Part shown: positions 647 through 17,390 of the stretch, in pieces | Numbering within the stretch: position 1 is the first letter of the stretch | Layout: every line of letters starts with the position of its first letter | IMG/VR virus record: IMGVR_UViG_3300021399_000002 | Location: 64,001-128,000 of that record | Source of the DNA: a virus | Lineage: Duplodnaviria; Caudoviricetes | DNA length: 64,000 nucleotides | Reading direction: 5' to 3' (one strand) | The notes under the pieces: generated by a model | What the model was told of the DNA's origin: nothing | Database searches by the model: none | Seen by the model: only the letters and a program-made list of their open reading frames with translations | Position numbers and translations under genes: made by a program

Positions 647-718
647 CGAGGATGTAGTGTAGCGGTTAACACGGTTGATTTGGGATCAACAATGGCAGTT
701 CGACTCTGACATCTTCGA
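647..718 (+). tRNA. tRNA-Pro(TGG), slightly atypical
   Basis: GTTGA-TT-TGG-GA-TCAAC anticodon arm, GTTCGAC T-loop; 8-bp acceptor and one T-stem mismatch. Confidence 0.75.
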
Positions 719-723
719 CTGGA

Positions 724-815
724 TAGGCCATTACAGCAAATTATTTATAAAAGTAAAAGAAATGTCTGTAAAACATAACTGAGAAGGTTCGATCCCTTCA
801 AATTTAAATGGCCTA
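724..815 (+). ncRNA. tRNA-Tyr mimic closed by an ACAGCAA-bearing terminal stem (copy 1)
   Basis: TAGGCCATT/AATGGCCTA stem, ACAGCAA at 733, ATGT-CTGTAAA-ACAT arm, GAAGG-TTCGATC-CCTTC T-arm; no D-arm or CCA. Confidence 0.65.
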
Positions 816-824
816 GTTTTTTAT

Positions 825-931
825 TAGACCAAACAGCAATTAGGCTCGCTCTTAGCGAGGGTGGTATAAGTGGTAGTACATTTACTGTAAAGTAAAAAAT
901 TGGAGTTCGAATCTCCACCTAATTTGGTCTA
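825..931 (+). ncRNA. tRNA-Tyr mimic closed by an ACAGCAA-bearing terminal stem (copy 2)
   Basis: TAGACCAAA/TTTGGTCTA stem, ACAGCAA at 833, D-arm with TGGTA, CTGTAAA loop, TGGAG-TTCGAAT-CTCCA T-arm; no CCA. Confidence 0.65.
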
Positions 932-1050
932 GTTTGAATATTCGCTCTATCTTGGAGCTAGTAGATTGCCGCGTTGGATTGTTCCTATTTGAAAGAGGTA
1001 GAGTAGTATCTACAACTCTTCCGCGGCGTTTTATAGGAGAAATAAGAATA

Positions 1051-1311
1051 ATGAAAAATATAGATGGATATATCAATAGAATACAGACACCAGATGGTAA
1101 AATATATGCACTTACCTGTGAACCACTTGAAAATTTAAAATTAAATGAAGTTTATAATTGTCTAAAAGTAATGGATATGCTATTATATAAATATGCTTAT
1201 GAGCCAAAAACAGTTGTAGAATTTAATTCTACGGAAGAGATGGCAAAATATTTTCATATGTTTCTTTCAATAATCCTTCCAGAAGAATACAGGTATGATA
1301 AAGAAAAATGA
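1051..1311 (+). CDS. hypothetical protein
   Basis: AGGAG upstream of ATG 1051; TGA overlaps the tRNA start. Confidence 0.6.
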   Translation: MKNIDGYINRIQTPDGKIYALTCEPLENLKLNEVYNCLKVMDMLLYKYAYEPKTVVEFNSTEEMAKYFHMFLSIILPEEYRYDKEK

Positions 1312-1394
1312 CACTATGGCAGAGTGGTAATGCGTCAGATTGCTAATCTGTAGCCATCTTCACGGGTGCCGAGGTTCGAATCCTCGTAGTGTCG
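1310..1394 (+). tRNA. tRNA-Ser(GCT)
   Basis: GACACTA/TAGTGTC acceptor, CAGA-TT-GCT-AA-TCTG, long variable arm, GTTCGAATC. Confidence 0.9.
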
Positions 1395-1396
1395 CT

Positions 1397-1548
1397 GATG
1401 CGGTGGCGGAATAGGTAGACGCTATGGGCAAGACAGATATTCGAGGAGAACAGCTATTAAGTTAGCAGTATTGCTAAATAATACTAAGGCAATATCTTAG
1501 GTCATTGGGTCTGTCATGTGAGGTGCAAGCAAATCCTCACCCGCATTT
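1397..1548 (+). ncRNA. tRNA-like RNA with a ~95-nt domain replacing the anticodon and variable arms
   Basis: GATGCGG/CCGCATT acceptor, Leu-type D-arm GCGGAATAGGTAGACGC, GTGAGG/CCTCAC T-stem with expanded loop. Confidence 0.6.
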
Positions 1549-1550
1549 AT

Positions 1551-1584
1551 AGTCCCTTAGCGTAATGGTAGCGCAAGGAGTTGA
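1551..1584 (+). pseudogene. 5' half of an interrupted tRNA-Gln
   Basis: AGTCCCT acceptor strand, D-arm GCGTAATGGTAGCGC, then GGAG-TTGA; pairs with 2070-2108. Confidence 0.75.
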
Positions 1585-1588
1585 TTTA

Positions 1589-1990
1589 ATGGAAACTAAA
1601 ATATGTACAAAATGTGGTATAGAAAAATCTATAGATGATTTTGCTTGGCGTGATAAAGCAAAAGGAACTAGGCGTTCTGAATGTAAAACTTGTCATAGTA
1701 ATTATATGAAAGAAAAATATAAAGAAAAACGACAAGCAATAGGAGAAATTAAATAGGATTTATCTTGTGCTAAATGTGGATATAATGAATATCCAACAGC
1801 TTTAGATTTTCATCATTTAGATCCAAGTCAAAAAGATACCACAGTCGCACGAATGATCGCAGCTAAATATAGTTTAGAGCGTGCCTTATCTGAAATTGAT
1901 AAATGTGTATGCTTATGTGCTAATTGCCATCGTGTATTTCATTTCCTTGAAAAAGAAGAAGGAATTACAATTGATGAGTTTCTAAAATAA
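1589..1990 (+). CDS. HNH homing endonuclease (one in-frame TAG=Gln)
   Basis: CxxC Zn finger; reading through TAG 1754 gives CAKCG..ALDFHH..LCANCHRVFH, ends TAA; 133 aa. Confidence 0.85.
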
Positions 1991-2064
1991 TGGGGTGTCG
2001 CCAAGTTGGTCGAAGGCACAGGACTTTGACTCCTGCATCGTTGGTTCGAATCCAACCACCCCAG
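1991..2064 (+). tRNA. tRNA-Gln(TTG)
   Basis: TGGGGTG/CACCCCA, CAGGA-CT-TTG-AC-TCCTG, GTTCGAATC. Confidence 0.92.
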
Positions 2065-2069
2065 CTTAA

Positions 2070-2546: not shown

Positions 2547-3137
2547 AAAAGATGCTTAATTCAGTAAATTAGAACCCAGTGAAGAAATGTTGACCGCATT
2601 GCTGGGGACATCTGAATGTCATCCAAAACCTTGATGGGATACTTTCAAGTATTGGGCGCAAAATCGGTAACGATTAGCGATAAGGGAGAAACTCCAAATG
2701 ACAAGGATGGGCGCTTTTATATCTAGTTGTAAATGCATGATTCCTTACGGCGGGATAATAGAAAGCTTAGTGAATAGCTAAGCCGAATCCTAATAAGGGT
2801 TTTAGTTGGTGACTGTAATCAAACTTAGGAAGAACCATAACTCGCTACTGCTGTTGAAAGTCAGAAATGACATATAAGTAAGGTTTACAGTAGTTATAGT
2901 TCAAATTGGCAGCAATTTAATATATAGAAGATTGAAAATTCTTTCAAATAAAATTGCTGAATGGTTGAATTAAACTTTGAGGTAGTCAATCCTCATCTAG
3001 CTTAGACCGAAAGGTAAGCATTAAAAGTGATCGGGTCGCGCCCGGCGCTCAGCGTAATGTTTCTAGATAGCATAATATACAATGGGGATATAAAAGTACG
3101 GAGAAAGACCGCGAATTTATTGAATTAAGCATCTTTT
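2547..3137 (+). ncRNA. large (~590 nt) structured ncRNA, ROOL/GOLLD-class candidate
   Basis: No ORF of 60 aa or more, own promoter, closed by a ~23-bp helix (2548-2570/3114-3136), many hairpins including GAAA-type loops. Confidence 0.65.
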
Positions 3138-5678: not shown

Positions 5679-5706
5679 GGGACAGCATTTGCTGTCCCAC
5701 TTTTTT
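5679..5706 (+). terminator. intrinsic terminator
   Basis: GGGACAGC-ATTT-GCTGTCCC then T-tract. Confidence 0.8.
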
Positions 5707-5708
5707 AT

Positions 5709-5737
5709 TTGACTTTTAATTAAAATTAATGTATAAT
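5709..5737 (+). promoter_or_regulatory. sigmaA-type promoter
   Basis: TTGACT-17-TATAAT. Confidence 0.75.
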
Positions 5738-5765: not shown

Positions 5766-6557
5766 ATGAATTTGAATATTTACACAACCGAAATGGCAAA
5801 ATCAATATGGGATAAAGCTTTTTTTATGGATAAAATTATAGGAGCTAAATGCGTAATTGATTTTGGATGTGCAAATGGCGCAATGACTCGTTATCTTTCT
5901 GACCTTCATCCAGATATAACATTTGTAGGATATGATATTTCACATGAATTAATTGATCAAGCCATAATTAATGCACGCTTGTGTCCAAATAATAATCTTT
6001 TATATTATTGTGGCATTTGGGATGGATTACAAGATATGGAAGATTATGTTATAAACCATTTTGCACCAGAAGAAATCTGTATTAATTTCTCTTCTGTTCT
6101 ACATGAAGTATATTCATCAACAGGTGGCATTGAAACAATTAAAGAATTAGTTGATAAACTTAATCCGCGTTATATTACAATTCGTGATATGTATTGTGAT
6201 GAACATTTGCCTTTTACCAAGCCTACATTTAGTGAAATTTGGGGACCACTTCCCTATCAATGCTGCGTTGAATTTGTGGATAAATTTGGTATGATTACAG
6301 ATTGGCGTAGTATGACGCATCTTTTAATGAAACTTCAATGGAAAGATAATGGCTGGGAAGAAGAATTAAAAGAAGATTATTATTCTTGGGATATTGATAA
6401 GTTTATTAAGGATATTAGTATTGGCGGTGAGTATATCCCTAGCTTTGATTGCCGCTACCAGCTTCCATATCTTGGAGAGAAATGGAAGAAGGAATATGGG
6501 TGGTATAATCCTGATATTCATACTCATGCTCAATTTATTCTTAGGAGGGATGATTAA
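5766..6557 (+). CDS. class I SAM-dependent methyltransferase
   Basis: VIDFGCANG motif I, VGYDIS, SSVLHE. Confidence 0.8.
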   Translation: MNLNIYTTEMAKSIWDKAFFMDKIIGAKCVIDFGCANGAMTRYLSDLHPDITFVGYDISHELIDQAIINARLCPNNNLLYYCGIWDGLQDMEDYVINHFAPEEICINFSSVLHEVYSSTGGIETIKELVDKLNPRYITIRDMYCDEHLPFTKPTFSEIWGPLPYQCCVEFVDKFGMITDWRSMTHLLMKLQWKDNGWEEELKEDYYSWDIDKFIKDISIGGEYIPSFDCRYQLPYLGEKWKKEYGWYNPDIHTHAQFILRRDD

Positions 6558-7024
6558 TGCCAATTTTGTATATTCTTTGCGGGCCGAGTGGCTGCGGAAA
6601 AACTACTTGGGCTAACGATTTTATTAAAGAGCATCATGATATTCGTTATGTATCTCGGGATGAAATTCGTTTTCAGTTGGTAAATCCTGATGAAAGTTAT
6701 TTTTCACGCGAAAAGGAAGTCTTTCGGCGCTTTGCCAATACTATTCGGCACACTCTTGTAGATGGCTTTGATTGTATTGCCGATGCCACTCATTTGAATG
6801 AATTTTCCCGTCGTAAGCTTACACAAGCAATTGACATGTATTTTAAAGACTATGAAATTGTTTATGTCAGTTTTAATGTAAATGTAGATACATGTATTGA
6901 ACATAATGCTAATCGTGAAGGCAGAGCTAATGTTCCTGAAACTGTAATTCGTAATATGTGCAGAGACTTTCGTACTCCATCTATTGATGAAGATGAGCGT
7001 GTAAAGGAGATTATTAATGTATAA
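6557..7024 (+). CDS. polynucleotide 5'-kinase-like P-loop protein (AAA_33, Pnkp kinase domain)
   Basis: GPSGCGKTT, SRDEIR, IADATHL, R..VPE.VI. Confidence 0.8.
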   Translation: MPILYILCGPSGCGKTTWANDFIKEHHDIRYVSRDEIRFQLVNPDESYFSREKEVFRRFANTIRHTLVDGFDCIADATHLNEFSRRKLTQAIDMYFKDYEIVYVSFNVNVDTCIEHNANREGRANVPETVIRNMCRDFRTPSIDEDERVKEIINV

Positions 7025-7217
7025 TATAGAAAAAATTAAAAACGCAGCTATTGCTGCAGATATTTATAATTACCTTAAAACAGCATATTATGGGACAACT
7101 CAAGAAGAAATTGATTTTAGAGTAAATTACGGTTCAAATGGCGTAGTGAATAAAGTACTAAATTATATTTATAATAAATATCTAAAAGAACCATTTAGTG
7201 AAACAGATAGGAAGTGA
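7017..7217 (+). CDS. hypothetical protein
   Basis: AAGGAG RBS, overlaps both neighbours. Confidence 0.6.
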   Translation: MYNIEKIKNAAIAADIYNYLKTAYYGTTQEEIDFRVNYGSNGVVNKVLNYIYNKYLKEPFSETDRK

Positions 7218-7852
7218 TTACAGTGAGCGAGATTTTCTTTACCAGCGACACCCACTTTGGGCACCAGCCTGAGTTCCTTTGGAAACCCAGAGGTTTTTCT
7301 TCTGTCGAAGAAATGGATGAAGCTATTATTGAAAATTGGAATAAAGTAGTTAAGCCCACAGATATTGTATACCATCTTGGAGATACGATGCTTAACGATA
7401 ATGTACATGGACTTGAATGTTTCAGGCGGCTAAATGGGCAGATTTTTCTTATTTATGGAAATCATGAAAGCGACGCTAGAAAGAACCTACTTTTCACTGA
7501 GCTTCCTGGTAAAATGCTCGGTGGCTGGTATGCCTGGCTTATCAAGTATGGTAAACTTTCTATCTACATGAGCCATTATCCTTCGATTACAAGTAATTAT
7601 GACCAGAAACATTTTAACCAGCATGTATTGAGCCTTCATGGACATACTCATCAGAGAACTAATTGGCTTGATCCGAAAAATCCTTTCCTCTATCATGTCG
7701 GTCTAGATTCTCATAATAATACTCCCGTCCATATTGATGAAGTAATCACAGATATTCGTCAGCGTTGGGATGAAATTGGCCGTCTACCAGTACCAGTTCA
7801 GCCACAAGACACCTATCCATATGGAGGGCTTATAAATGAAAATAGAGCGTGA
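7214..7852 (+). CDS. calcineurin-like metallophosphoesterase
   Basis: SDTHFGH, LGD, GNHE, HYP, HGHTH. Confidence 0.9.
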   Translation: MITVSEIFFTSDTHFGHQPEFLWKPRGFSSVEEMDEAIIENWNKVVKPTDIVYHLGDTMLNDNVHGLECFRRLNGQIFLIYGNHESDARKNLLFTELPGKMLGGWYAWLIKYGKLSIYMSHYPSITSNYDQKHFNQHVLSLHGHTHQRTNWLDPKNPFLYHVGLDSHNNTPVHIDEVITDIRQRWDEIGRLPVPVQPQDTYPYGGLINENRA

Positions 7853-8249
7853 ACTTGTTCCTGTTAAAAAATATGAAACCGTTTATGTCGCTCAAGATGG
7901 TACTCGCTTTTATAATAGAGCCAGCGCAATTAGGCATGATGCTATAACTTTCGCAGGTACTCGTTGTGTTAAACAAGATAGCATAAAATTGCCAGATAAT
8001 GAAACTTGGATGAGAGTTTTTAATATTACATGCCAAGAAGATTGGGATTATTTATACTATACAGAATGGGAACAAAATATTTTTTGTGATCAATATACTG
8101 GCCCTAGTTGGTATGGCTCTATTAAGCATGAAGGCATTGATGATGCTGATAGTTATGAAATTATAAAAATTGATTCTAACTATTTAAAGAAATATGAAGA
8201 TTATATTAAAGAACTTAAAGATTTGACTTTATCCAAATCTATGGTATAA
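7836..8249 (+). CDS. hypothetical protein
   Basis: GGAGG RBS. Confidence 0.7.
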   Translation: MKIERELVPVKKYETVYVAQDGTRFYNRASAIRHDAITFAGTRCVKQDSIKLPDNETWMRVFNITCQEDWDYLYYTEWEQNIFCDQYTGPSWYGSIKHEGIDDADSYEIIKIDSNYLKKYEDYIKELKDLTLSKSMV

Positions 8250-8250
8250 T
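8223..8250 (+). promoter_or_regulatory. sigmaA-type promoter (gives a ~120-nt leader)
   Basis: TTGACT-16-TATAAT with TG. Confidence 0.7.
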
Positions 8251-8375
8251 AATTATGTTAGAAGATAATAAGTGCTTAATTGGGTCACCATGCAAGCATT
8301 GTAATCCTTTAATATGCACATTTTATAAACACTCTTACAGTCGTGTCAACGACCAAGATGAAAAGGAGAATGAAA

Positions 8376-9884
8376 ATGAACGAACTGCTAAAGAATCTAA
8401 AGGAACATGAAAATGTAACTTATACTGCTAATGGCGCGAAAGCCTATCATTCTACCATGTCTAAGGTATATGACCTTTTCGCGCAAGGCGGAGCTATGCG
8501 TGGTGCATCCGATAGTGATTGCGTTGCTCTATTCGCGGCCGCTTATAAGGAAGATCCTTCCCTGGCCCTAAAATGCCTATTCTGGCTTCGTGATATTCGC
8601 GGCGGCCAAGGAGAACGGCGCTTTTTCCGTATTTGTCTGCAATGGCTGGCAATGAACCATAAAGATGAGGCATGTCATCTAATTCCGCTTGTATCTGAAT
8701 ATGGGCGTTATGATGACCTATTCGAGCTATTCAATACTCCATGTGAGTCTGAAATGCTTGGATATATTAAGTATGTAATTGATAAGAATGAAGATCATCT
8801 TGTATATAAATGGATGCCTTCTATCAATACATCTTCTAAGAATACACAAGCTCGTGGACGCAAGATTGCTTATGAATTTGGAATGACTGAACGCGAGTAT
8901 CGTAAGATGCTTTCTGAAGGGCGTAAAGCCTGTAATCTTGTTGAAACTCTAATGAGTCAAAATCGTTGGGATGAAATTGCTTTTAATAAGCTTCCTTCTC
9001 GCGCTGGTATTCTGTATTCAAAGGCATTCGCACACAGAGAAGAAACTAAAGAACGCTATGCTGCTTTTATGTCTTCTGATAAGACTAAGGTAAATGCCGG
9101 AACTCTATATCCTTATGATGTAGTAAAGAAAGCGCGCGAAGTTATGGGCAATTATTATGGTTGGTATAGCCCTAGGCCTAATGTGTCTCTAAATGATACT
9201 AATCGTCTCGCCGCAAACAAGTATTGGGACAATCTAACCGATTATTTCAATGGCGCAACGCTAAATGCACTATGTGTCTGTGATACAAGTAGCAGTATGC
9301 TAAGTGGTTATGGCAGTGTAGCTCCTATTGATGTAGCTATTTCTCTATCTCTATATACAGCCGAGCGGGCAAAAGGCCCATTCCATAATCACTTTATTAG
9401 CTTTAGCTCGCGGCCGCAGCTTATTGAAGTTGAAGGCGCAGATTTCTGCGATAAAGTATATCGTATTTATCGTCGGAATCTATGTGAAAATACGAATATT
9501 GAAGCTACTTTTGATCTAATTCTACAAACTGCTATTAATAATCATCTTTCTCAGGATGATCTACCAGAAACACTAATTGTAGTGAGTGATATGCAGTTTG
9601 ATTATGGGCGTACAAGTACACGCTATAGCGGAACTACGCTTATGGAAAAGATTGAAAGTAAGTGGAACTCTTATGGATACAAGATGCCAAAGCTTATTTA
9701 TTGGAATGTTAATGCGTCCGGCGATGGAAATATTCCAATGAAGGATAAAGATGGCATTACATTCGTGAGCGGCGCATCTCCTTCTATTTTTACTCAAATT
9801 ATGACTGGAAAAACAGGTGTTGATCTTATGTTTGAGGCACTCCTAAGTGAACGCTATAAGCCTGTATATTCCATTATTACATAA
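8376..9884 (+). CDS. DUF2828-family TROVE/Ro60-like protein with C-terminal vWA domain
   Basis: LRDIRGGQGERR, YGRYDDL, KWMP; vWA motifs CDTSSSM, VSDMQFD, IYWNV, VSG.SP. Confidence 0.8.
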   Translation: MNELLKNLKEHENVTYTANGAKAYHSTMSKVYDLFAQGGAMRGASDSDCVALFAAAYKEDPSLALKCLFWLRDIRGGQGERRFFRICLQWLAMNHKDEACHLIPLVSEYGRYDDLFELFNTPCESEMLGYIKYVIDKNEDHLVYKWMPSINTSSKNTQARGRKIAYEFGMTEREYRKMLSEGRKACNLVETLMSQNRWDEIAFNKLPSRAGILYSKAFAHREETKERYAAFMSSDKTKVNAGTLYPYDVVKKAREVMGNYYGWYSPRPNVSLNDTNRLAANKYWDNLTDYFNGATLNALCVCDTSSSMLSGYGSVAPIDVAISLSLYTAERAKGPFHNHFISFSSRPQLIEVEGADFCDKVYRIYRRNLCENTNIEATFDLILQTAINNHLSQDDLPETLIVVSDMQFDYGRTSTRYSGTTLMEKIESKWNSYGYKMPKLIYWNVNASGDGNIPMKDKDGITFVSGASPSIFTQIMTGKTGVDLMFEALLSERYKPVYSIIT

Positions 9885-9905
9885 CCTTTTCTTCCTCTTC
9901 ATAAT

Positions 9906-9951
9906 GTCAAGCAATTTATTGCTTGACTTTTTTCTTAATTTCATGTATAAT
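9906..9951 (+). promoter_or_regulatory. fused terminator and promoter
   Basis: GTCAAGCAAT/ATTGCTTGAC hairpin plus T-tract; its TTGACT is 17 bp from TATAAT. Confidence 0.75.
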
Positions 9952-9974
9952 TATTATAGTAAGGAGGTAAGAGT

Positions 9975-10733
9975 ATGGAAATTATGCAAGTAGTTAAAAT
10001 GCATCATGATTTTATTAAAGAATTAGGTTATGAAGTTGTTATGACCGTTTTGATCGGGTCACAAAATTATGCATTAGATAATGATAATAGTGATTATGAT
10101 ACATTTACTTTTATTCTTCCTTCTGAACGCGATTTATATCTTGGAAATGATCCAATAAGTGGAGAATTTGAAGTATACGATGGTAAATGTGTGTATAAAG
10201 ATATTCGGCTTGCTCTTAACTTACTTAAAAAAACTTCTCCTAATAGTCTTGAATGTTTTGTTAGTAAGTATCATTATTATGAACCAAAATATGCTAACAT
10301 TTTAACAAAGTATTTAGATAATGAGAATACATTAAATAAAATGCTTCATTGTAATTATGAGCATATGTTATATGCTATGGCCGGCATGGCACATCAACTT
10401 ACTAAGCGTAATATGTCCGCTGGTAAGCGTTATTCACATGCATTGCGGCTTTATAGTATGAAAGATAGTTTCTTAGATTTCGTTAAAACTGATCAATTAC
10501 TTAAACTATTACCACGCGATTATCAAGAAGCACTTCATGCAAAGCGTGATACTTTGGAATCACATGATGCATACTATAATAATGGATGTGTAAGTATCGC
10601 AAATATTTTAGATAGCTGTCGTGATGAATTTAAAAAGACTCTTATTCAGCACGCAATTGAAGTAGAAGGGTTTAAACTAATTGAAGAAATGCAGCAAGAA
10701 TTGATGCATTATTATATTAAATATATTTTATAA
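9975..10733 (+). CDS. Pol-beta-type nucleotidyltransferase (YcgL/RlaP-like)
   Basis: GSQNYALD...SDYD motif, K.SPN.LE. Confidence 0.75.
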   Translation: MEIMQVVKMHHDFIKELGYEVVMTVLIGSQNYALDNDNSDYDTFTFILPSERDLYLGNDPISGEFEVYDGKCVYKDIRLALNLLKKTSPNSLECFVSKYHYYEPKYANILTKYLDNENTLNKMLHCNYEHMLYAMAGMAHQLTKRNMSAGKRYSHALRLYSMKDSFLDFVKTDQLLKLLPRDYQEALHAKRDTLESHDAYYNNGCVSIANILDSCRDEFKKTLIQHAIEVEGFKLIEEMQQELMHYYIKYIL

Positions 10734-10744
10734 AAGGAGACATA

Positions 10745-11149
10745 ATGGATCTAAAAATTCACAATGGGATGCGCGTCCTATATAAACACAATGGACAATG
10801 GTGCGTTGGGAAACTTACAAATCAAATGCCGCCAAAACTTACTGAAAAGGGATTGTTTGTATTTGTTATTCCTAAAGATTATATGGATGCTGAAGAAGTA
10901 CCATATTTACATGATGTAGAAATTAATGATTTGTTTCTAGAAGCGATCCCAGTAGAAGATTGGATGGCGCAATATGGCTATCTAATGCCGAAAGAAGAAT
11001 ATATTAAATTCATTCAAAGCGATGAATTTGATAAAAACATTGAGCACGCATATGTATCAGATGGAGAATATTATTACTATAATGTCAATAAATACTCAGA
11101 ACAATGGTTAAATAAACAGCCATTTGACTATATTGTACGAGAAGAATAA
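10745..11149 (+). CDS. hypothetical protein
   Basis: AAGGAG RBS. Confidence 0.7.
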   Translation: MDLKIHNGMRVLYKHNGQWCVGKLTNQMPPKLTEKGLFVFVIPKDYMDAEEVPYLHDVEINDLFLEAIPVEDWMAQYGYLMPKEEYIKFIQSDEFDKNIEHAYVSDGEYYYYNVNKYSEQWLNKQPFDYIVREE

Positions 11150-11367
11150 TGTGGAATAAAAAAAGAATAGAAGAAAAAGATATCCCTCTAATTATTTCAC
11201 AAGGAATGGAAATGGTTAAACAGGGTAATGAATTAGTAGAACAAATTCGATGTATATATAAGCTTGAAAATGATAATATAATTTATATGATGTCACTTTT
11301 AGATTATATAGATAATCTTCCTCAAAATAAAATTATAGAATTTTGGCTTTGTCAAATGGTTAATTAA
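11149..11367 (+). CDS. hypothetical protein
   Basis: TAATG overlap. Confidence 0.6.
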   Translation: MWNKKRIEEKDIPLIISQGMEMVKQGNELVEQIRCIYKLENDNIIYMMSLLDYIDNLPQNKIIEFWLCQMVN

Positions 11368-11402
11368 TAACCATTTGACTTTTTTTTAATTTATGATATA
11401 AT
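11351..11402 (+). promoter_or_regulatory. fused terminator and promoter
   Basis: GTCAAATGGTTA/TAACCATTTGAC hairpin plus T8; TTGACT-16-TATAAT. Confidence 0.75.
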
Positions 11403-11420
11403 TTAATAAAAGGAGGGAAG

Positions 11421-12140
11421 ATGATGCCTACTGCAAAAACATATGAAAATTTTCCTTTGGATGGTGAACCTTTTAAAGAAAATGGTCGTATGTATGTTAA
11501 TATTACCACGCCCAAAGGAATTAAAAAAGTAAGATGGTATTCTGATGCTGAATATCAAAAAATGTATCCAGAAGTTACAGCAATTAATGATTTTAATGCT
11601 AATTATGCTTTTGGCTTTAGGGAAGAAGGATTTATTACTTTATATAAAGGCGATGAAGATGCAATTCGTAATTGGGCACAAGCAGAGTGGCCGCCGAAGG
11701 CTTGGTATAATACTTTATTTCATTTTTATACTCCAGGCTTTATGCCAATTACTAATCTTCCAAATACTATAACTCCTATTAAATTAACTTGGGATGAAGT
11801 TAAATTAAATGAAACACAAATGAAAGATGATAATGAAATAGAAAAATATGTTATGGCACGCATTACTGGTTTGGATCATTTTACAAGTGAGTTTCAGGGA
11901 GAAAAAGATACATGGTTGGAAAAAGAAGTTACTATTAGTAAAAATACAAAAAGTGAAAACTATTTTGGTGAAAAGCATACGCATATTATGCATGATGCCG
12001 AAGGTAATATATATGTATGGGAAACAGGCGCCAAAAATTTTGAAGTTGGTATGGTTATTAAATTAAAGATGAAAGTAAAAGCGCACAAAGAAATTAATGG
12101 AGAGAAATGTACTGTTGTTTGGTACTGTAAAGAAATATGA
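11421..12140 (+). CDS. hypothetical protein (possible C-terminal OB fold)
   Basis: AGGAGG RBS, 239 aa. Confidence 0.7.
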   Translation: MMPTAKTYENFPLDGEPFKENGRMYVNITTPKGIKKVRWYSDAEYQKMYPEVTAINDFNANYAFGFREEGFITLYKGDEDAIRNWAQAEWPPKAWYNTLFHFYTPGFMPITNLPNTITPIKLTWDEVKLNETQMKDDNEIEKYVMARITGLDHFTSEFQGEKDTWLEKEVTISKNTKSENYFGEKHTHIMHDAEGNIYVWETGAKNFEVGMVIKLKMKVKAHKEINGEKCTVVWYCKEI

Positions 12141-12346
12141 AACTATTAAATCAACGGTATTTTGGCCTGATTGCTCGATGTAATTTTGGATGCGGAGCAT
12201 TAATTGGATATGAGCCAAAAGATGTTTCAGATAATCAAACTATTACATGCCCACAATGCGGTGCGCGATTATGGGTACCATTTAATCCAACTTATGATGG
12301 CATAATTAAAGAAGAGGAGAAAAAGAAAGATGAAACTGTGGTTTGA
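12137..12346 (+). CDS. small Zn-ribbon protein
   Basis: CxxxC...CPQCG. Confidence 0.6.
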   Translation: MKLLNQRYFGLIARCNFGCGALIGYEPKDVSDNQTITCPQCGARLWVPFNPTYDGIIKEEEKKKDETVV

Positions 12347-12560
12347 AAATCGCTTTGGTGAACAACGAGAAATTGCTATTTGCGCTACTAATGAAGATAT
12401 ATATAAAGCTATTAATGCCTTTATTAATCGGGCTAATGCCGCAAAACCAAAAGGATCTACTCCATTTAAAAGTCATTATATTAGAACTTGGGAGCAAGAT
12501 GGAAAAACTTGGTATGATGTAGGAAGTCATGCAGAATTCTTTTTTACGACTAATAATTAA
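12330..12560 (+). CDS. hypothetical protein
   Basis: ORF with YDVGSH.EFF C-terminus. Confidence 0.7.
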   Translation: MKLWFENRFGEQREIAICATNEDIYKAINAFINRANAAKPKGSTPFKSHYIRTWEQDGKTWYDVGSHAEFFFTTNN

Positions 12561-12570
12561 AGAGGTTAAG

Positions 12571-12837
12571 ATGATTACTTCTGCTGCAGTTCGTATTTAT
12601 GATAAACGACAAAATAAAGAAATTATTTTACCTGTACATCGCCATTGTGATGTATTTTATATCCTAAAAGAACTTGGCTATTCTAAAAATGATTTTATAA
12701 GTAATCTAAATGACCAAGGTTTTCTTGATGAAAATGGAAATTTTTATAATAGGATTGATGCGAAACTTCACGCTCTTATGTGTAAACAAATTGAACATAC
12801 TGAATATGCAGAATTATATTCGGAGGATTTATATTAA
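12571..12837 (+). CDS. hypothetical phage protein
   Basis: GAGGT RBS; QGFL..G.F..R..A and LYSEDL pattern. Confidence 0.7.
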   Translation: MITSAAVRIYDKRQNKEIILPVHRHCDVFYILKELGYSKNDFISNLNDQGFLDENGNFYNRIDAKLHALMCKQIEHTEYAELYSEDLY

Positions 12838-13052
12838 TGAGTAATGAATTTAAAGATTATTTATATGATAAGATATGCGAAGTTGTCCTTGACTCTGGCG
12901 CGATGGATAAAATTGAACAAGTTTGCGGCATTTCATACTCTATTCGCAATTATGTTTACGGACGCAAGAATGGGCAGAAAGTGGCCCTAATGGTTTGGTT
13001 TGATAATGATACTGGCGAATGGCGAATTGAACATAGGGAGACGGATAAATGA
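12837..13052 (+). CDS. hypothetical protein
   Basis: GGAGG RBS, TAATG overlap. Confidence 0.65.
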   Translation: MSNEFKDYLYDKICEVVLDSGAMDKIEQVCGISYSIRNYVYGRKNGQKVALMVWFDNDTGEWRIEHRETDK

Positions 13053-13294
13053 AGAGAATTATCGCTATTATACTTTGTTTTATGTTATGTATTTTACTTG
13101 CAGGATGTACTCAAGTAAGTAAATCTGAAAATTCTACTATTCATAGTTATGCTATGATTATAATGCCCAATGGTTCAATTATTGAAGGCGAGTGTATCGC
13201 TTTTACTCGTATTTCTAGCGGTTATGCAATGGTAAAAATTGATGGAGTTAAATATTATACTAATGAATGGCGTATTGTGATTTGGGAAAAGTAA
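13049..13294 (+). CDS. lipoprotein
   Basis: Signal peptide with LLAGC lipobox. Confidence 0.75.
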   Translation: MKRIIAIILCFMLCILLAGCTQVSKSENSTIHSYAMIIMPNGSIIEGECIAFTRISSGYAMVKIDGVKYYTNEWRIVIWEK

Positions 13295-13297
13295 TAT

Positions 13298-13325
13298 TTG
13301 ACAATTCTTAAATTTATGATATAAT
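13298..13325 (+). promoter_or_regulatory. sigmaA-type promoter
   Basis: TTGACA-16-TATAAT with TG. Confidence 0.75.
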
Positions 13326-13358
13326 TATTACATAAGAAAAAGAGAAAGGATGATTTAA

Positions 13359-14612
13359 ATGCTGAATAAAAATCAAGAGCGTGAACTTGCCTATGTAGTT
13401 TTGATTGATGGCATTGAACCAATCCCCGGCTATGACCGTGTAGAACATGCAATTGTTGGCGGCTGGCGAGTAATCGTTCAGAAAGGTCAATTTAATGTTG
13501 GAGACCCTGCTATTTATTTTGAAATTGATTCTCGTGTTCCTTCTGATAAGGAATGTTTTGCTTTCCTTGAGAAGCGTAATTATAAAGTTAAGACCTTGAA
13601 GATGTGTAAAACTATTTCTCAAGGCTTGCTTATGCACGCAAGTGATTTTGGATGGACTATTGAAAATAAAATTACTCCGGACGCTTATGGAACTCGCGCA
13701 ATTGATACTAGCGTTGCAATTATTGATGATGAAGGTCAAATTCATCGCGCAACCGATGAATCCCGCTTCCTGACTAAGAAACTGGGAATAACTTATGCTG
13801 ATGATGAAGATAACCAGCGTAAAGCCGCACCTGTAGATAAATATAAGAAAATGGCTTCACGCCATCAGAAACTCTTTAAGAAGCCTTTCATTCGCTGGAT
13901 GATGCATCGTGAATGGGGTCGTAAGGTTATGTTCTTCTTCTTTGGAAAGAAAAAGGATAAGAAAAATGGATGGCCTTCTTGGGTATCTAAAACTGACGAA
14001 GAACGCGTGCAGAATATGCCTTGGATTCTTACCAATGATGAAAAGTGGATTGCTACTGAAAAGATTGATGGCACCTCAACTACCTTTACTATGAAGCGTA
14101 GCAAGTTTGGTAAGAAAGAACTATATGTATGCTCGCGTAATGTATGCTTTGATAGCATTGAGAAGCCTTGCTTCTACGATAGCAATGTATATTGGGAAAT
14201 GGCACAAAAGTATGATATTTTCAATGTACTTGCTCAAATGCTTAATGAGCATCCACAGGAAGAGTGGATTACTATTCAGGGCGAAACTTACGGTGCTGGC
14301 GTACAGCAGCGTGAATACTCTATTCCTGATCACGATTTTGCCGCTTTCAACCTAATCTTCTCAACTCAGGGAAGAGTTGGAACGAAGCAGATGATTGGTA
14401 CACTTACTCCTTGTGGAATTCCATGTGTTCCTGTGATTGAAGATGAAATGTATATCAATCAATTTGAAAATGTTGATGCTATTCTTGCATATGCTGAAGG
14501 TAATTCACAGCTGGACGGTCAACCACGCGAAGGCATTGTATTCCGTACTCTTGATGGCACCAAGTCTTTTAAGGCGGTGAGCAACAGCTTTTTGCTGAAA
14601 TATCATGGCTAA
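13359..14612 (+). CDS. ATP-dependent RNA ligase, DRB0094/Rnl5-like, with N-terminal OB domain
   Basis: I.PIPG.DR.E and YFEIDS N-domain; KTDEERVQN, EKIDGTS, QGE, REGIVF, FKAVSN. Confidence 0.85.
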   Translation: MLNKNQERELAYVVLIDGIEPIPGYDRVEHAIVGGWRVIVQKGQFNVGDPAIYFEIDSRVPSDKECFAFLEKRNYKVKTLKMCKTISQGLLMHASDFGWTIENKITPDAYGTRAIDTSVAIIDDEGQIHRATDESRFLTKKLGITYADDEDNQRKAAPVDKYKKMASRHQKLFKKPFIRWMMHREWGRKVMFFFFGKKKDKKNGWPSWVSKTDEERVQNMPWILTNDEKWIATEKIDGTSTTFTMKRSKFGKKELYVCSRNVCFDSIEKPCFYDSNVYWEMAQKYDIFNVLAQMLNEHPQEEWITIQGETYGAGVQQREYSIPDHDFAAFNLIFSTQGRVGTKQMIGTLTPCGIPCVPVIEDEMYINQFENVDAILAYAEGNSQLDGQPREGIVFRTLDGTKSFKAVSNSFLLKYHG

Positions 14613-15417: not shown

Positions 15418-15558
15418 ATGAGCGAGCATACTAAATACCTAAGATAGTTATATCGTTGTAATCTACTAAAAGCACGAGGAGAAGAAGTAAATCGTGGTAT
15501 TATTGGAAAGCTAAATAGAAAAATTCGTAAATATGAGGAGAATGTAAAATATGTCTAA
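15418..15558 (+). CDS. small basic protein (one TAG=Gln)
   Basis: AAGGAG RBS; fills the gap only under code 15. Confidence 0.55.
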
Positions 15559-16489
15559 ATTAATTATTGGAATTATTATTTTAATTGGCGGTTTAATTCT
15601 ATCAAATATTTTAAAAAATGAGTATGGCGGACGACCATTCGCAATTATTGAACGATTAATTAGTTGTGTTTTAGGTATAGCTTTTATTTGTGCATCATGT
15701 ATTTCATATGTACCTACTGGCTATACAGGAATTGTAACTACATTTGGTAAAGTCCATAATGAGACACTTGATGCTGGTATTAATTTTCATGCCCCATGGG
15801 ATACTGTAATTAAGATGGATAATCGTGAACAGCGTGAATCTTTTACACTTGAAGCTTTTTCTAAAGATATTCAGCAAGTCGGGGTTCAAGGTAGTGTAAA
15901 CTATAATATTGATAAGGTTACCGCAATGAATCTTTATAGGGATGTTGGAGCAGAATATCCTACTATTTTAATTAAGCCTCGTATTCAAGAAGATGTAAAG
16001 ATTGTAATTGCTAAATATACTGCCGAAAATCTTATTGAAAATCGGCAGGCTATGTCTGATACTATTTTTGAGCTATTAAAGGCAGAACTCGCGCCAAAGG
16101 GTATTAATATGATTTCTTTGGCTATTGAAAATGTAGATTTTACAGATGTATTTGAAGCAGCGGTAGAAGCTAAACAGGTCGCTACTCAGGAGAAACAGCG
16201 TGCTCAAACTCTACAGGAACAGCAAACTATGGAAGAAGAGCAGAAAGCTGAGCGTGCTCGCATCGCCGCTCAAGCCGAAGCTGATGTAAAGAAAATCGAA
16301 GCTGATGCAGAAGCCTATGCTATTCGCGCAAAAGCAGAAGCAGAATCAGAAGCTAATACAAAATTAAATGCTTCTCTTACTTCTGAATTGATTGAATATA
16401 ATAAAATTCTCAAATGGACTGGTGAACTACCACGCTTCTTTGGTGGAGGAAATACGCTACCAATTCTAAATATGGCCGAGGCTGAATAA
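15551..16489 (+). CDS. SPFH/Band-7/prohibitin-family membrane protein
   Basis: Two N-terminal TM helices, VPTG..GIV..FGKV, SKDIQ, Ala/Glu coiled coil. Confidence 0.9.
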   Translation: MSKLIIGIIILIGGLILSNILKNEYGGRPFAIIERLISCVLGIAFICASCISYVPTGYTGIVTTFGKVHNETLDAGINFHAPWDTVIKMDNREQRESFTLEAFSKDIQQVGVQGSVNYNIDKVTAMNLYRDVGAEYPTILIKPRIQEDVKIVIAKYTAENLIENRQAMSDTIFELLKAELAPKGINMISLAIENVDFTDVFEAAVEAKQVATQEKQRAQTLQEQQTMEEEQKAERARIAAQAEADVKKIEADAEAYAIRAKAEAESEANTKLNASLTSELIEYNKILKWTGELPRFFGGGNTLPILNMAEAE

Positions 16490-16505: not shown

Positions 16506-16533
16506 TTGACTTTTTTTTAATTTATGATATAAT
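16506..16533 (+). promoter_or_regulatory. sigmaA-type promoter
   Basis: TTGACT-16-TATAAT with TG. Confidence 0.7.
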
Positions 16534-16556: not shown

Positions 16557-17390
16557 ATGAAAGATATCCATTGTTTTTCAGATATTCATGGAGTATGGGC
16601 TTTATATAAAGCTATTATGGATTATTGTCAGAAACAAGACTCAGAAGGAACAATTTTATTCTTAGGTGACGCTATTGACCGTGGCCCCGATGGTTATAGG
16701 ATTATGAAAGAATTGCTTAATAATCCACGCGTAATATACTTAATGGGCAATCATGAAGATATGTTTACAAAAGCCGCACGACAAATTAAAGAAATGTTTA
16801 ATTTTGAAAATGCAGAACGAGCTAAAGTAAAAACTGTACTTTCCGCATGTAAAAATTTTGATTATAAATACGCAGCTATTCAAGATTCACTTTATAATGG
16901 CGGTATGCCCACTCTACTAGATTGGGTTATGGACGGAATGCCAATGGATCTAATTGAACGTATTGAAAAATTACCTCATACTTTTAGTTATGAAAATTTG
17001 GATTTTTGCCATAGTGGTGGATTATATACTACTTTTAAACGAGTGGCAGATTGTGAATATGATATGTCTCCTATAGATCAATATGATGCAGATGCAATTA
17101 TTTGGAATAGATCTGCTTTAGATATCGGATGGGCGCCGGATCGTACTGTAATTTTTGGTCACACTCCAGTACCATACTTACCGGATTTTGCTAATGTTAA
17201 AGTGGATAAAATCTGTCCAATAAAATATGCTCCAACTACTAATCCTGTATATACTGGAGATAAATTGGATATAGATACTGGTGCAGTATTTACTGGAATT
17301 GCTTATGTTTTGAATATTTTAACTATGAAAGCACAAGGGTTTGAATTGAAAGATAATCAGGTTGAAAAAATTGAAGTGATTCAATTTTAA
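16557..17390 (+). CDS. Ser/Thr protein phosphatase-like metallophosphoesterase
   Basis: SDIHG, GDAIDRG, GNHE, FGHTP, IDTGA. Confidence 0.9.
   Translation: MKDIHCFSDIHGVWALYKAIMDYCQKQDSEGTILFLGDAIDRGPDGYRIMKELLNNPRVIYLMGNHEDMFTKAARQIKEMFNFENAERAKVKTVLSACKNFDYKYAAIQDSLYNGGMPTLLDWVMDGMPMDLIERIEKLPHTFSYENLDFCHSGGLYTTFKRVADCEYDMSPIDQYDADAIIWNRSALDIGWAPDRTVIFGHTPVPYLPDFANVKVDKICPIKYAPTTNPVYTGDKLDIDTGAVFTGIAYVLNILTMKAQGFELKDNQVEKIEVIQF

Follow-up and report, generated by a model that had tools for sequence, protein, structure and literature searches.

A candidate early RNA damage-response module in a TAG-recoding rumen phage

Introduction

Do the genes for a polynucleotide kinase, phosphoesterases, a nucleotidyltransferase and an RNA ligase, spread over several transcription units of a rumen phage, form one system for the repair of RNA, and which part is played by the methyltransferase gene at their head? 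The question is raised by a stretch of 64,000 nucleotides (positions 64,001 to 128,000 of IMG/VR record IMGVR_UViG_3300021399_000002), hereafter called the window. An original prediction made from the letters alone had proposed a toolkit of split Hen1-Pnkp-like gene order, which heals, seals and protects RNA early in infection. Here, we arrive at a probability of roughly 0.7 that the region from 5.7 to 17.4 kb is an early-transcribed RNA damage-response module of this TAG-recoding phage.

Results

Gene order and early expression

In the source phage (~183 kb; 182,655 bp), TAG codes for an amino acid, and the genome encodes 24 tRNAs and one ROOL RNA. The tRNA array, which includes a tRNA-CTA, and the ROOL RNA are located directly upstream of the repair genes together with other structured RNAs, the module following directly 3' of them. 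It comprises the following features:

5679-5698, + strand: terminator-like hairpin upstream of the promoter of the MT operon
5709-5737, + strand: strong sigma-70-like promoter of the MT-KIN-s66-MPE-u137 operon (11/12, TTGACT-17-TATAAT)
5766-6557, + strand: MT, class I SAM-dependent methyltransferase, 263 aa (weak Methyltransf_4/25/31/23/12 matches)
6557-7024, + strand: KIN, Pnk/Pnkp-type polynucleotide 5'-kinase, 155 aa (AAA_33 / phrog_505)
7017-7217, + strand: s66, ORF of 66 aa with a good ribosome-binding site
7214-7852, + strand: MPE, aq_1665/PF12850-type binuclear metallophosphoesterase, 212 aa (Metallophos_2 / phrog_547)
7836-8249, + strand: u137, conserved ORF of 137 aa, fifth and last gene of the operon
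8223-8250, + strand: RO promoter, sigma-70-like site
8343-9884, + strand: RO, DUF2828 + DUF7788 Ro-like protein (phrog_850, E 2e-129)
9906-9951, + strand: terminator hairpin overlapping the -35 of the RlaP promoter
9975-10733, + strand: RLAP, RlaP-family Pol-beta nucleotidyltransferase (PF10127)
10745-11367, + strand: u134 and u72, two small conserved ORFs, present after RlaP in most relatives
11351-11402, + strand: terminator and promoter ahead of the 239-aa ORF
up to 13294 (entry 11351-13294), + strand: 239-aa ORF and five small ORFs, between RlaP and ligase
13298-13325, + strand: LIG promoter, full consensus (12/12, with TG)
13359-14612, + strand: LIG, ATP-dependent Rnl5-type RNA ligase (PHA02142 OB domain + RNA_ligase / phrog_968)
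15551-16489, + strand: Band-7/SPFH protein, accompanying repair genes in several relatives
16506-16533, + strand: promoter of the second metallophosphoesterase
16557-17390, + strand: second metallophosphoesterase (d277), lambda-phosphatase/NinI type

The ORF list and family matches place every gene that had been named, and the TAATG overlap between MT and KIN, where the original prediction had them. However, operon and toolkit both extend further than proposed. The first operon does contain the methyltransferase, kinase, small ORF and phosphoesterase genes, but ends with a fifth gene (7836-8249) that had been missed; likewise, the toolkit does not stop at 14612 (the proposed extent was 5766-14612) but runs to 17390, taking in the overlooked Band-7 and second phosphoesterase genes.

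The expected strong promoters and absence of TAG were both borne out. The five best sigma-70-like sites between 4.8 and 15.2 kb (at least 11/12 matches) are all on the + strand and are located directly upstream of MT, RO, RLAP, the 239-aa ORF and LIG. Throughout the window, the motif TTGACW-N16-18-TATAAT occurs 17 times, always on the + strand, as compared to 0.24 expected occurrences. From 5.7 to 17.4 kb, TAG serves neither as sense codon nor as stop in any gene, and genes further downstream carry in-frame TAG. Early expression is therefore suggested, because consensus promoters precede each unit and the genes of the region are free of TAG.

End-healing and sealing enzymes

KIN carries the P-loop GPSGCGKT (residues 9-16) as well as SRDEIR (33-38) and DAT (76-78). 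Its best solved relatives are the kinase domain of CthPnkp (4gp6, E 4e-6) and T4 Pnk (1ly1/1ltq); it also matches the Pnkp1 structure 4xrp (E 0.0017) and the kinase part of TIGR04075 (E 2e-11). MPE displays the motifs DTHFGH, GD, GNHE and GHTH, matches phrog_547 (E 5e-44) and 1xm7 (E 2e-10), and is presumed to heal 2',3'-cyclic-phosphate or 3'-phosphate ends. KIN is directly followed by MPE in 67 of 73 related loci, and the pair is the conserved core of the module. The spot between the two genes is variable: s66 has no homologue in the related loci, and the contig of one relative has 277 other letters in place of 6961-7224. Family searches assigned u137 to no known family, and its model (pLDDT 85.8) resembles no known fold, the best match reaching Z 4.4.

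RO, which probably starts at the ATG at 8376 preceded by AAGGAG, is a putative Ro60/TROVE-like RNA-binding protein. RLAP scores 36 bits against PF10127 (cut-off 23) and has the motifs GS (residues 27-28) and DYD (43-45). RlaP was shown biochemically to add nucleotides to RNA 3' ends, with a preference for damaged RNAs (bioRxiv 10.64898/2025.12.29.696909), and the enzyme of the window presumably adds back one or two nucleotides at damaged 3' ends. LIG, which alone in the genome matches PF09414, combines an OB domain at its N terminus with a nucleotidyltransferase domain; its motif I lysine is K235 (KIDG), and it also carries EGIVFR. Its best solved relative is NgrRnl (5cot, E 2.5e-28), and its match to the DRB0094 model TIGR02306 (E 3e-33) yields 115 bits, short of the equivalog cut-off (151). 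The Rnl5-type ligases DraRnl and NgrRnl are nick sealers acting on duplex RNA, and thus the fit of LIG to breaks in anticodon loops is not self-evident. The second phosphoesterase matches 1g5b (E 3e-4) and also the phosphoesterase part of phrog_8238. It falls into the lambda-phosphatase class, which also includes the phosphatase domain of Pnkp, and its gene directly precedes KIN in loci L016, L121, L122, L130 and L135.

A genome-wide search revealed one kinase and one RNA ligase, both inside the module, and no match for Rnl1 or a CCA-adding enzyme. The fetched flanks of the 73 kinase-bearing loci contain LIG in 44 cases, RO in 37 and RlaP in 34, and module genes are clustered in dozens of related phages. 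The DUF2828, RlaP-type Pol-beta and DRB0094-type ligase assignments agree with the matches to phrog_850, PF10127 and TIGR02306, respectively. Together with catalytic motifs that inspection found intact in the repair enzymes, the Pnk/Pnkp and NgrRnl relatives, the activity of RlaP and the clustering in relatives, this upholds the idea of an early heal-and-seal toolkit. Its derivation from a split Hen1-Pnkp system was not upheld: only the kinase is Pnkp-like, MPE is of the PF12850/aq_1665 type, the ligase is an Rnl5 enzyme and MT is not Hen1.

The methyltransferase

MT belongs to a phage-specific class I SAM-dependent family with generic fold matches. Motif I (DFGCANG) spans residues 32-38, and the predicted structure (pLDDT 88.6) retrieves class I enzymes that are all tied at Z 13.6-15.7, the best being the small-molecule or protein methyltransferases MppJ, NovO, UbiG and BamL. 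The Hen1 methyltransferase domain 3jwi (Z 13.9) is tied with these generic enzymes. Against the Hen1 model TIGR04074, MT reaches 11.4 bits (cut-off 340), with the SAM motif alone covered; it has no ligase-activating domain, and a search for fused forms returned none. Membership in the Hen1 family, with which MT shares the Rossmann fold only, is thereby ruled out, as the original prediction had suspected. Within SSVLHE (residues 109-114), S110, H113 and E114 are invariant across 30 family representatives, and this stretch occupies the structural place of the Hen1 ExxEH motif. D141, H185, E200, E203 and H254 are likewise invariant and could form a metal site. The protein is acidic (pI 4.7), and neither sequence nor fold points to RNA specifically.

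Conserved linkage of MT to repair genes, an expectation of the original prediction, was found in part. MT directly precedes KIN in 15 of the 73 kinase loci, which all represent one MT clade (100/100 support), and the gap is at most 8 nt in 11 of 14 own-clade loci. In the window, the stop codon of MT overlaps the KIN start codon in the sequence TAATG, which is preceded by GGAGG; this overlap suggests co-translation. In L016, MT also adjoins RO and RlaP. Distant homologues from at least four other lineages are found near repair genes, such as a kinase-Metallophos-Rnl1 fusion (cluster 14), LIG and KIN (L080), an MPE (L082) and an RO-LIG-KIN-MPE cluster (L149). Such juxtaposition occurs on at least three separate branches of the MT tree. 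However, in 57 of the 73 kinase loci the fetched flanks lack MT, which implies that repair works without it, and MT is absent from L086 even though the KIN of that locus is 91% identical to that of the window. Record MT835469 contains MT and no match for an AAA_33 kinase, Rnl2/5, Rnl1 or RtcB, a relative of 98% completeness is without a kinase, and more than 100 kb separate MT from the kinase in phages such as Phosso and Atu_ph07. In the first survey, repair genes occurred within 10 kb of MT in 3 of 21 clusters, which is not clearly above chance placement (~1, our estimate for genomes of 170-500 kb). Thus, MT is an accessory gene, set at the operon head by one sub-clade.

Could MT nevertheless replace Hen1 functionally? 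It would then 2'-O-methylate the terminal ribose of the 5' fragment once the phosphoesterase has exposed the 2',3'-diol, making the sealed junction resistant to renewed cleavage. The leading position in the kinase-phosphoesterase operon, the recurrent juxtaposition with repair genes, the invariant residues at the ExxEH place and the presence of 3jwi among the structural matches are in line with this. Yet we consider it unlikely, given the lack of relationship to Hen1, of a ligase-activating domain and of fusions, the many kinase loci devoid of MT, the record with MT but no kinase or ligase match, and the kinase-free relative; moreover, LIG is from a different family than the Hen1-dependent Pnkp/Rnl ligases (PMC4411300). 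It is equally doubtful that MT is unconnected with RNA, its methyl acceptor being a small molecule or protein such as a host factor or signalling nucleotide, and that it was placed here by shuffling of early cassettes at promoter/terminator seams. Its top fold and sequence matches and its acidity would suit such a role, the majority of distant homologues lack any conserved neighbour, and the slot upstream of KIN is occupied in other phages by homing endonucleases, a glycosyltransferase or small ORFs. However, the only neighbour families common to the own clade and distant clusters are repair enzymes, tRNA genes are often nearby (7 of 21 distant clusters have them within 10 kb, and one MT is located inside a tRNA array), and the overlap with KIN speaks for joint synthesis. 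Our best guess is a stand-alone enzyme that methylates RNA, with tRNA as the likeliest target, for protection or tuning; we do not think that MT is an obligate partner of the ligase.

Discussion

Taken together, the enzymes predicted from these genes provide good support for a heal-and-seal function of the module. The Pnk-type kinase would phosphorylate 5'-OH ends, and removal of 2',3'-cyclic or 3'-phosphates would fall to the translationally coupled aq_1665-type MPE and the lambda-phosphatase-type enzyme. RlaP could put back one or two lost 3' nucleotides before the Rnl5-type ligase seals the break, and the DUF2828 Ro-like and Band-7 proteins might act as scaffold or chaperone. Host ribotoxins would probably supply the substrates by cutting tRNAs or other RNAs of the translation machinery. 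Alternatively, the main task of the enzymes might be the maturation of unusual RNAs of the phage itself, through processing of their ends and ligation or circularization, as the location directly 3' of the tRNA array, ROOL and other structured RNAs and the preference of Rnl5-type ligases for structured, nicked substrates could indicate. This is quite improbable, since comparable kinase-phosphoesterase-ligase-RlaP sets are widespread in phages and bacteria without these RNAs, where they are interpreted as serving damage repair (PMC7824862), RlaP prefers damaged RNAs, and ligation junctions were not observed in this phage.

Comparison with known systems

Bacterial Pnkp/Hen1 systems co-encode kinase, phosphatase, ligase and methyltransferase, as does the window, and in the split version (separate Pnkp1, Rnl and Hen1) the kinase is homologous to KIN. 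However, MT shares the Rossmann fold only, without the N-terminal domain that activates the ligase, LIG is of the Rnl5 type and the operon phosphoesterase is from another metallophosphoesterase branch. T4 Pnk and Rnl1, which counteract PrrC, likewise are phage-encoded enzymes that heal and seal cut tRNA, and the kinase clade is common to both. In T4, a HAD-type phosphatase is fused to the kinase and the ligase is Rnl1, whereas the window encodes separate binuclear metallophosphoesterases and an Rnl5-type ligase, and adds RlaP, the Ro-like protein and Band-7. LIG shares its OB and nucleotidyltransferase domains, KxDG and EGxV with the Rnl5 enzymes DraRnl and NgrRnl (5cot), but belongs to the phage PHA02142/phrog_968 branch and has 417 aa rather than 340, with ~100 extra residues between the domains.

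RNA-repair gene sets of jumbo phages were reportedly treated by Burroughs and Aravind in 2016. Iyer et al. (2021) described in such phages an ATP-dependent RNA ligase, a polynucleotide kinase, a calcineurin-like phosphoesterase, RlaP, a ROT/TROVE protein and many tRNAs, interpreted as countermeasures against host defences that cut tRNA; Hen1 has no occurrence in that paper (PMC7824862). Thus, this kind of toolkit is already described for jumbo phages, with the same parts list, and split Pnkp1-Rnl-Hen1 is already known in bacteria. What sets the window apart from the jumbo-phage sets is the arrangement in separate promoter-driven early cassettes of a TAG-recoding rumen phage, the tightly coupled pair of kinase and aq_1665-type phosphoesterase, and the methyltransferase at the operon head in one sub-clade.

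Genomic setting and organization of the RNA repair genes

The phage genome (182,655 bp, assembled with a 127-bp end overlap), of which the window covers bases 64001–128000, carries nearly all of its genes on the plus strand; the GC content is ~33%. When TAG is read as a sense codon, the open frames of the later genes become much longer and the ORF cover of the plus strand of the genome rises from 63.6 to 97.4 kb. At 17.7–26.4 kb and 47.9–48.6 kb, runs of same-frame ORFs are split by TAG alone. The genome encodes 24 tRNAs at genome positions 55–66 kb, among them one with anticodon CTA (genome positions 55157–55242); the last four are within the window (647–2065). The tRNA array is separated from the repair genes by a full-length ROOL RNA with its own consensus promoter (2485–2513). 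Two degenerate tRNA-like elements are visible on the plus strand at 737–807 and 854–925, marked by a tRNA match of 26 bits and by an ARAGORN prediction whose anticodon has, oddly, two bases. Scanning of 5.7–18 kb against Rfam revealed no known RNA, a mir-320 match at 14326–14401 remaining below threshold. Near-identical DNA was detected in one animal gut sample only and fragments of relatives in gut runs from sheep, goat and cattle. A megablast search of phage records returned no near relative of the repair region.

All elements listed in the original prediction were recovered, as the seven ORFs from the methyltransferase to the RNA ligase below; the last two genes lie beyond the range that it had covered.

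Features of the repair region and its surroundings
2551–3130, plus strand: full-length ROOL RNA (Rfam RF03087, 265.9 bits, E 3e-60)
5766–6557, plus strand: methyltransferase, matching generic class I SAM methyltransferase models
6557–7024, plus strand: kinase, matching AAA_33 and phrog_505 polynucleotide kinase
7017–7217, plus strand: 66-aa ORF without family match
7214–7852, plus strand: operon metallophosphoesterase, matching Metallophos_2 and phrog_547
8343–9884, plus strand: Ro-like protein, matching DUF2828, DUF7788 and phrog_850
9975–10733, plus strand: RlaP (PF10127)
13359–14612, plus strand: RNA ligase, matching PHA02142-OB, RNA_ligase, phrog_968 and TIGR02306
15551–16489: Band-7/SPFH protein
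16557–17390: second metallophosphoesterase, lambda-phosphatase/NinI type, with its own consensus promoter at 16506

The operon includes a fifth gene, at 7836–8249, in addition to those named originally. Its product yields a confident structural model, for which no fold match exceeds Z 4.4; matches of residues 1–42 to dsRBD-like folds reach only Z 3–4, which is too weak to use. The genes for methyltransferase and kinase overlap as stated originally, in a TAATG that is common to the stop codon of the former and the start codon of the latter, with GGAGG upstream. For the Ro-like gene, ATG 8376 is a more likely start than 8343. Strong promoters were likewise found where they had been claimed: the five best promoter-like sites of the region are all on the plus strand and precede the genes for the methyltransferase, the Ro-like protein, RlaP, a 239-aa ORF and the ligase. 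The window contains 17 instances of the strict pattern TTGACW-N16-18-TATAAT, all of them on the plus strand, as compared to 0.24 expected occurrences, and three of the promoters are preceded or overlapped by hairpin terminators. At 9906–9927 and 11351–11379, the terminator hairpin ends in TTGAC, which is also the –35 element of the next promoter, i.e. the bases are shared. No gene of the repair region uses TAG, whether as sense codon or as stop, as had been stated before.

In the contig of a sheep-gut relative, positions 6961–7224, comprising the 66-aa ORF together with the 3' end of the gene for the kinase, are replaced by 277 unrelated letters. Since the 66-aa ORF also has no homologue in 160 related loci, this segment represents a variable micro-cassette within the operon. 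Contigs from RNA libraries of sheep and cattle gut, 85–95% alike, cover parts of the genes for the kinase, the operon phosphoesterase, the fifth operon gene and the Ro-like protein, and one of them spans the methyltransferase/kinase junction. Such contigs cannot show transcription, strand or level.

The predicted healing and sealing enzymes have intact motifs

Among solved structures, the kinase is closest to the Clostridium thermocellum Pnkp kinase domain (4gp6, E 4e-6) and to T4 Pnk. The protein has the hallmarks of a polynucleotide 5'-kinase, that is the P-loop GPSGCGKT, the SxDxxR segment SRDEIR with the catalytic Asp and Arg, aligning to SSDFCR of CthPnk, whose catalytic Asp is D38 (PMC3902929), and the lid Arg in NREGR; residues G9, G14, K15, S33, D35, R38 and R120 are invariant across 15 homologues. 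The operon phosphoesterase, with Aquifex aq_1665 as best solved relative, possesses the full metal-ligand set of a binuclear, calcineurin-like metallophosphoesterase (DTHFGH, HLGD, GNHE, SH121 and GHTH). Residues D57, N83, H84, H121, H144 and H146 are invariant and D12 and H14 at least 90% conserved. We infer that this enzyme acts on RNA ends.

The ligase has the layout of the Rnl5 or DRB0094 type, with an N-terminal OB domain (PF21189) followed by a nucleotidyltransferase domain (PF09414). It is best matched by NgrRnl of Naegleria (5cot, E 2.5e-28), to whose KLDG motif K235 (KIDG) aligns. As it scores 115 bits against TIGR02306 (DRB0094), below the equivalog cut-off of 151, it represents a related phage branch of the Rnl5 type rather than an equivalog. 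RlaP exceeds the Pfam cut-off (PF10127, 36 bits versus 23), covering profile positions 12–157 of 249 only, and its Pol-beta signature is intact (GS at 27–28, DYD at 43–45). According to a recent preprint, RlaP enzymes extend damaged RNAs at the 3'-OH by one or two nucleotides, an activity required for restoring badly damaged tRNA (bioRxiv 10.64898/2025.12.29.696909). Directly after RlaP, a 134-aa ORF without family match (10745–11149) is found in nearly all RlaP-bearing relatives; it stays behind the Ro-like gene in L018, a related locus that is without RlaP. The product of this ORF may be a partner of RlaP. The Ro-like protein is a putative Ro60/TROVE-like protein by its matches to DUF2828, DUF7788 and phrog_850; a PDB sequence search returned no match. 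Genome-wide, there is only one kinase and one ligase. Neither Rnl1 nor a CCA-adding enzyme was found in this genome; the Rnl1 model found none in the named control genomes, yet it found Rnl1 in two other phage records. Prediction of a complex of kinase, phosphoesterase and methyltransferase gave a score of 0.01, which is uninformative on binding.

The kinase-phosphoesterase pair is the conserved core

To compare gene order, IMG/VR loci carrying the methyltransferase family (80) or the kinase family (79) were retrieved, and profiles derived from the window's clade were run against their six-frame ORFs. Counts refer to the 73 kinase loci having at least 1.2 kb of upstream sequence. The loci are partly fragments, and 'absent' therefore means absent from up to 8–10 kb of flank.

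Gene content around the kinase in 73 related loci
Phosphoesterase directly after kinase: 67
Ligase within fetched flank: 44
Ro-like gene within fetched flank: 37
RlaP within fetched flank: 34
Lambda-type phosphoesterase within fetched flank: 15
Methyltransferase as immediate upstream neighbour of kinase: 15
Methyltransferase 7.7 kb upstream of kinase, adjoining Ro-like gene: 1 (L149)
No methyltransferase within fetched flanks: 57

These counts (67 versus 15) and the relatives devoid of the methyltransferase identify the kinase-phosphoesterase pair as the core and the methyltransferase as accessory. Among the loci without it is L086, whose kinase is 91% identical to that of the window. In such close relatives, the slot upstream of the kinase contains small ORFs, in more distant phages homing endonucleases, a glycosyltransferase or further phosphoesterases, and in no methyltransferase-less locus another methyltransferase. 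The lambda-type phosphoesterase often immediately precedes the kinase. In L113 (6875–7615) and L140 (4171–5130), the slot just upstream of the kinase is taken by genes for homing endonucleases of the HNH and GIY-YIG types.

The methyltransferases of the window's own clade are monophyletic (100/100), indicating a single origin of their adjacency to the kinase. In L016, the most divergent member of this clade, the trio is broken and the methyltransferase lies between the Ro-like gene and RlaP. Grouping of the distant homologues at 70% identity gave 21 clusters, three of which have repair genes within 10 kb. Cluster 14 has a triple fusion of kinase, Metallophos and Rnl1, L080 has ligase and kinase, and L082/83 has a phosphoesterase. 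The reverse survey from the kinase added L149 as one further neighbourhood, and all these cases are scattered over the methyltransferase tree. In seven distant clusters tRNA genes are located within 10 kb, one methyltransferase even lying inside a tRNA array; the distant clusters share no further recurring neighbour family. In two human-gut phages of ~170–220 kb, a 735-aa kinase-Metallophos-Rnl1 fusion is encoded 5–7 kb upstream of the methyltransferase homologue (L024, 2623–4830; L028, 2247–4451), its architecture resembling Pnkp but its ligase domain being of the T4 Rnl1 type.

Several genomes speak against a strict link of the methyltransferase to repair. MT835469 (176 kb) has the methyltransferase and no match to AAA_33, RNA_ligase, Rnl1 or RtcB. 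More than 100 kb separate kinase and methyltransferase in Phosso, Atu_ph07 and several uncultured genomes, and one 98%-complete genome has no kinase.

The methyltransferase is distinct from Hen1

The methyltransferase belongs to a family with 257 metagenomic homologues, and its look-alike clusters in the Atlas are mostly viral. The model (pLDDT 88.6) depicts a plain class I Rossmann methyltransferase spanning residues 1–263, and the SAM-binding features of this class, the GxGxG-type motif I (DFGCANG at 32–38) and the acidic motif II (D57), are invariant; Methyltransf_23/25 is matched by 23 of 24 family members. The Z scores of the structural matches fall gradually from 15.7 to 13.6 through many class I enzymes, led by small-molecule and protein methyltransferases, the Hen1 domain 3jwi being at rank 39. 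A PDB sequence search retrieved the Hen1 domains 3jwi/3jwg at E 0.16–0.2. Against the Hen1 model TIGR04074, the protein scores 11.4 bits as compared to a cut-off of 340 and aligns only at residues 25–66 (SAM motif I). In Hen1, an N-terminal domain binds and activates the Pnkp/Rnl ligase (PMC4411300). The 263-aa protein has no second domain and hence no ligase-activating domain, and a search among longer proteins, which is weak evidence, found no longer or fused homologues. Given the match confined to the SAM loop and the absence of a second domain and of fused forms, the methyltransferase is not a Hen1 family member.

In agreement with the original prediction, the metal-binding ExxEH...H motif that follows strand 4 in Hen1 is missing, with SSVLHE at 109–114 (S110, H113 and E114 invariant). 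Comparison of 30 representatives, with identities as low as 27%, shows K17, S110, H113, E114, R140, D141, K189, E200, E203, Y205 and H254 as invariant polar residues; H185 is kept in 29. Judged from sequence, this set would suit a metal-assisted reaction. A TrmB-like identity was discarded, as Methyltransf_4 is matched barely at the cut-off (24.1 versus 24 bits) and in only 6 of 24 members. Matches in a viral fold library (cap-N7 and one giant-virus small-RNA 2'-O-methyltransferase) are among the generic ones, all at TM ~0.5, and do not discriminate.

Role of the methyltransferase and implications

Most simply, the methyltransferase is an accessory cassette. We prefer RNA, most likely tRNA, as its substrate, because the gene has repeatedly come to lie next to repair genes and tRNA arrays. 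A substrate other than RNA, to which the leading structural matches could be taken to point, appears unlikely. An obligate Hen1-like partnership with the repair enzymes would fit the adjacency to the kinase, but is doubtful to the same degree, as the methyltransferase occurs without any repair enzymes and many repair clusters do without it. That the whole enzyme set matures the phage's own odd RNAs, given the neighbouring tRNAs and ROOL RNA, is still less probable. One may speculate, with low confidence, that the family comprises metal-assisted RNA methyltransferases unrelated to Hen1, which mark tRNAs or healed ends against (re)cutting by ribotoxins. 'Repair with immunity' would then have been invented independently by large phages, which would have passed it, in cassette form, between tRNA arrays and clusters of repair genes.

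While the toolkit itself is expected, phage RNA repair being a known counter to tRNA-cutting defences, the region provides a clean example, with seven recognisable parts and early promoters in a stop-codon-recoding rumen phage, adjoining tRNAs and a ROOL RNA. Our analysis identifies the kinase and the aq_1665-type phosphoesterase as a conserved core pair in many rumen and gut phages, and delimits an uncharacterised, widespread family of phage methyltransferases recurring beside RNA repair genes and tRNA arrays. If the methyltransferase acts on RNA, it would be a new RNA-protection enzyme that might also serve for end-specific RNA labelling.

Comparison with known systems

In bacterial Pnkp, the kinase, lambda-phosphatase-type phosphoesterase and ligase domains reside on one polypeptide, whereas here they are encoded by separate genes; for bacteria, a version consisting of separate Pnkp1, Rnl and Hen1 proteins has been solved (PMC4411300). 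The idea of a split Pnkp by descent did not hold, as only the kinase is common to both, the operon phosphoesterase and the ligase coming from other branches. TIGR04075 (Pnkp) matches the kinase only at model positions 10–139 of 851, with 42.8 bits versus a cut-off of 750. The true counterpart of the Pnkp phosphatase class is not the operon enzyme but the second phosphoesterase at 16557–17390. The proposed heal-and-seal toolkit is well supported: its enzymes are recognisable, their motifs are intact, and the same parts list has already been described for jumbo phages (PMC7824862), so that the heal-and-seal part of the region is a member of that known kind.
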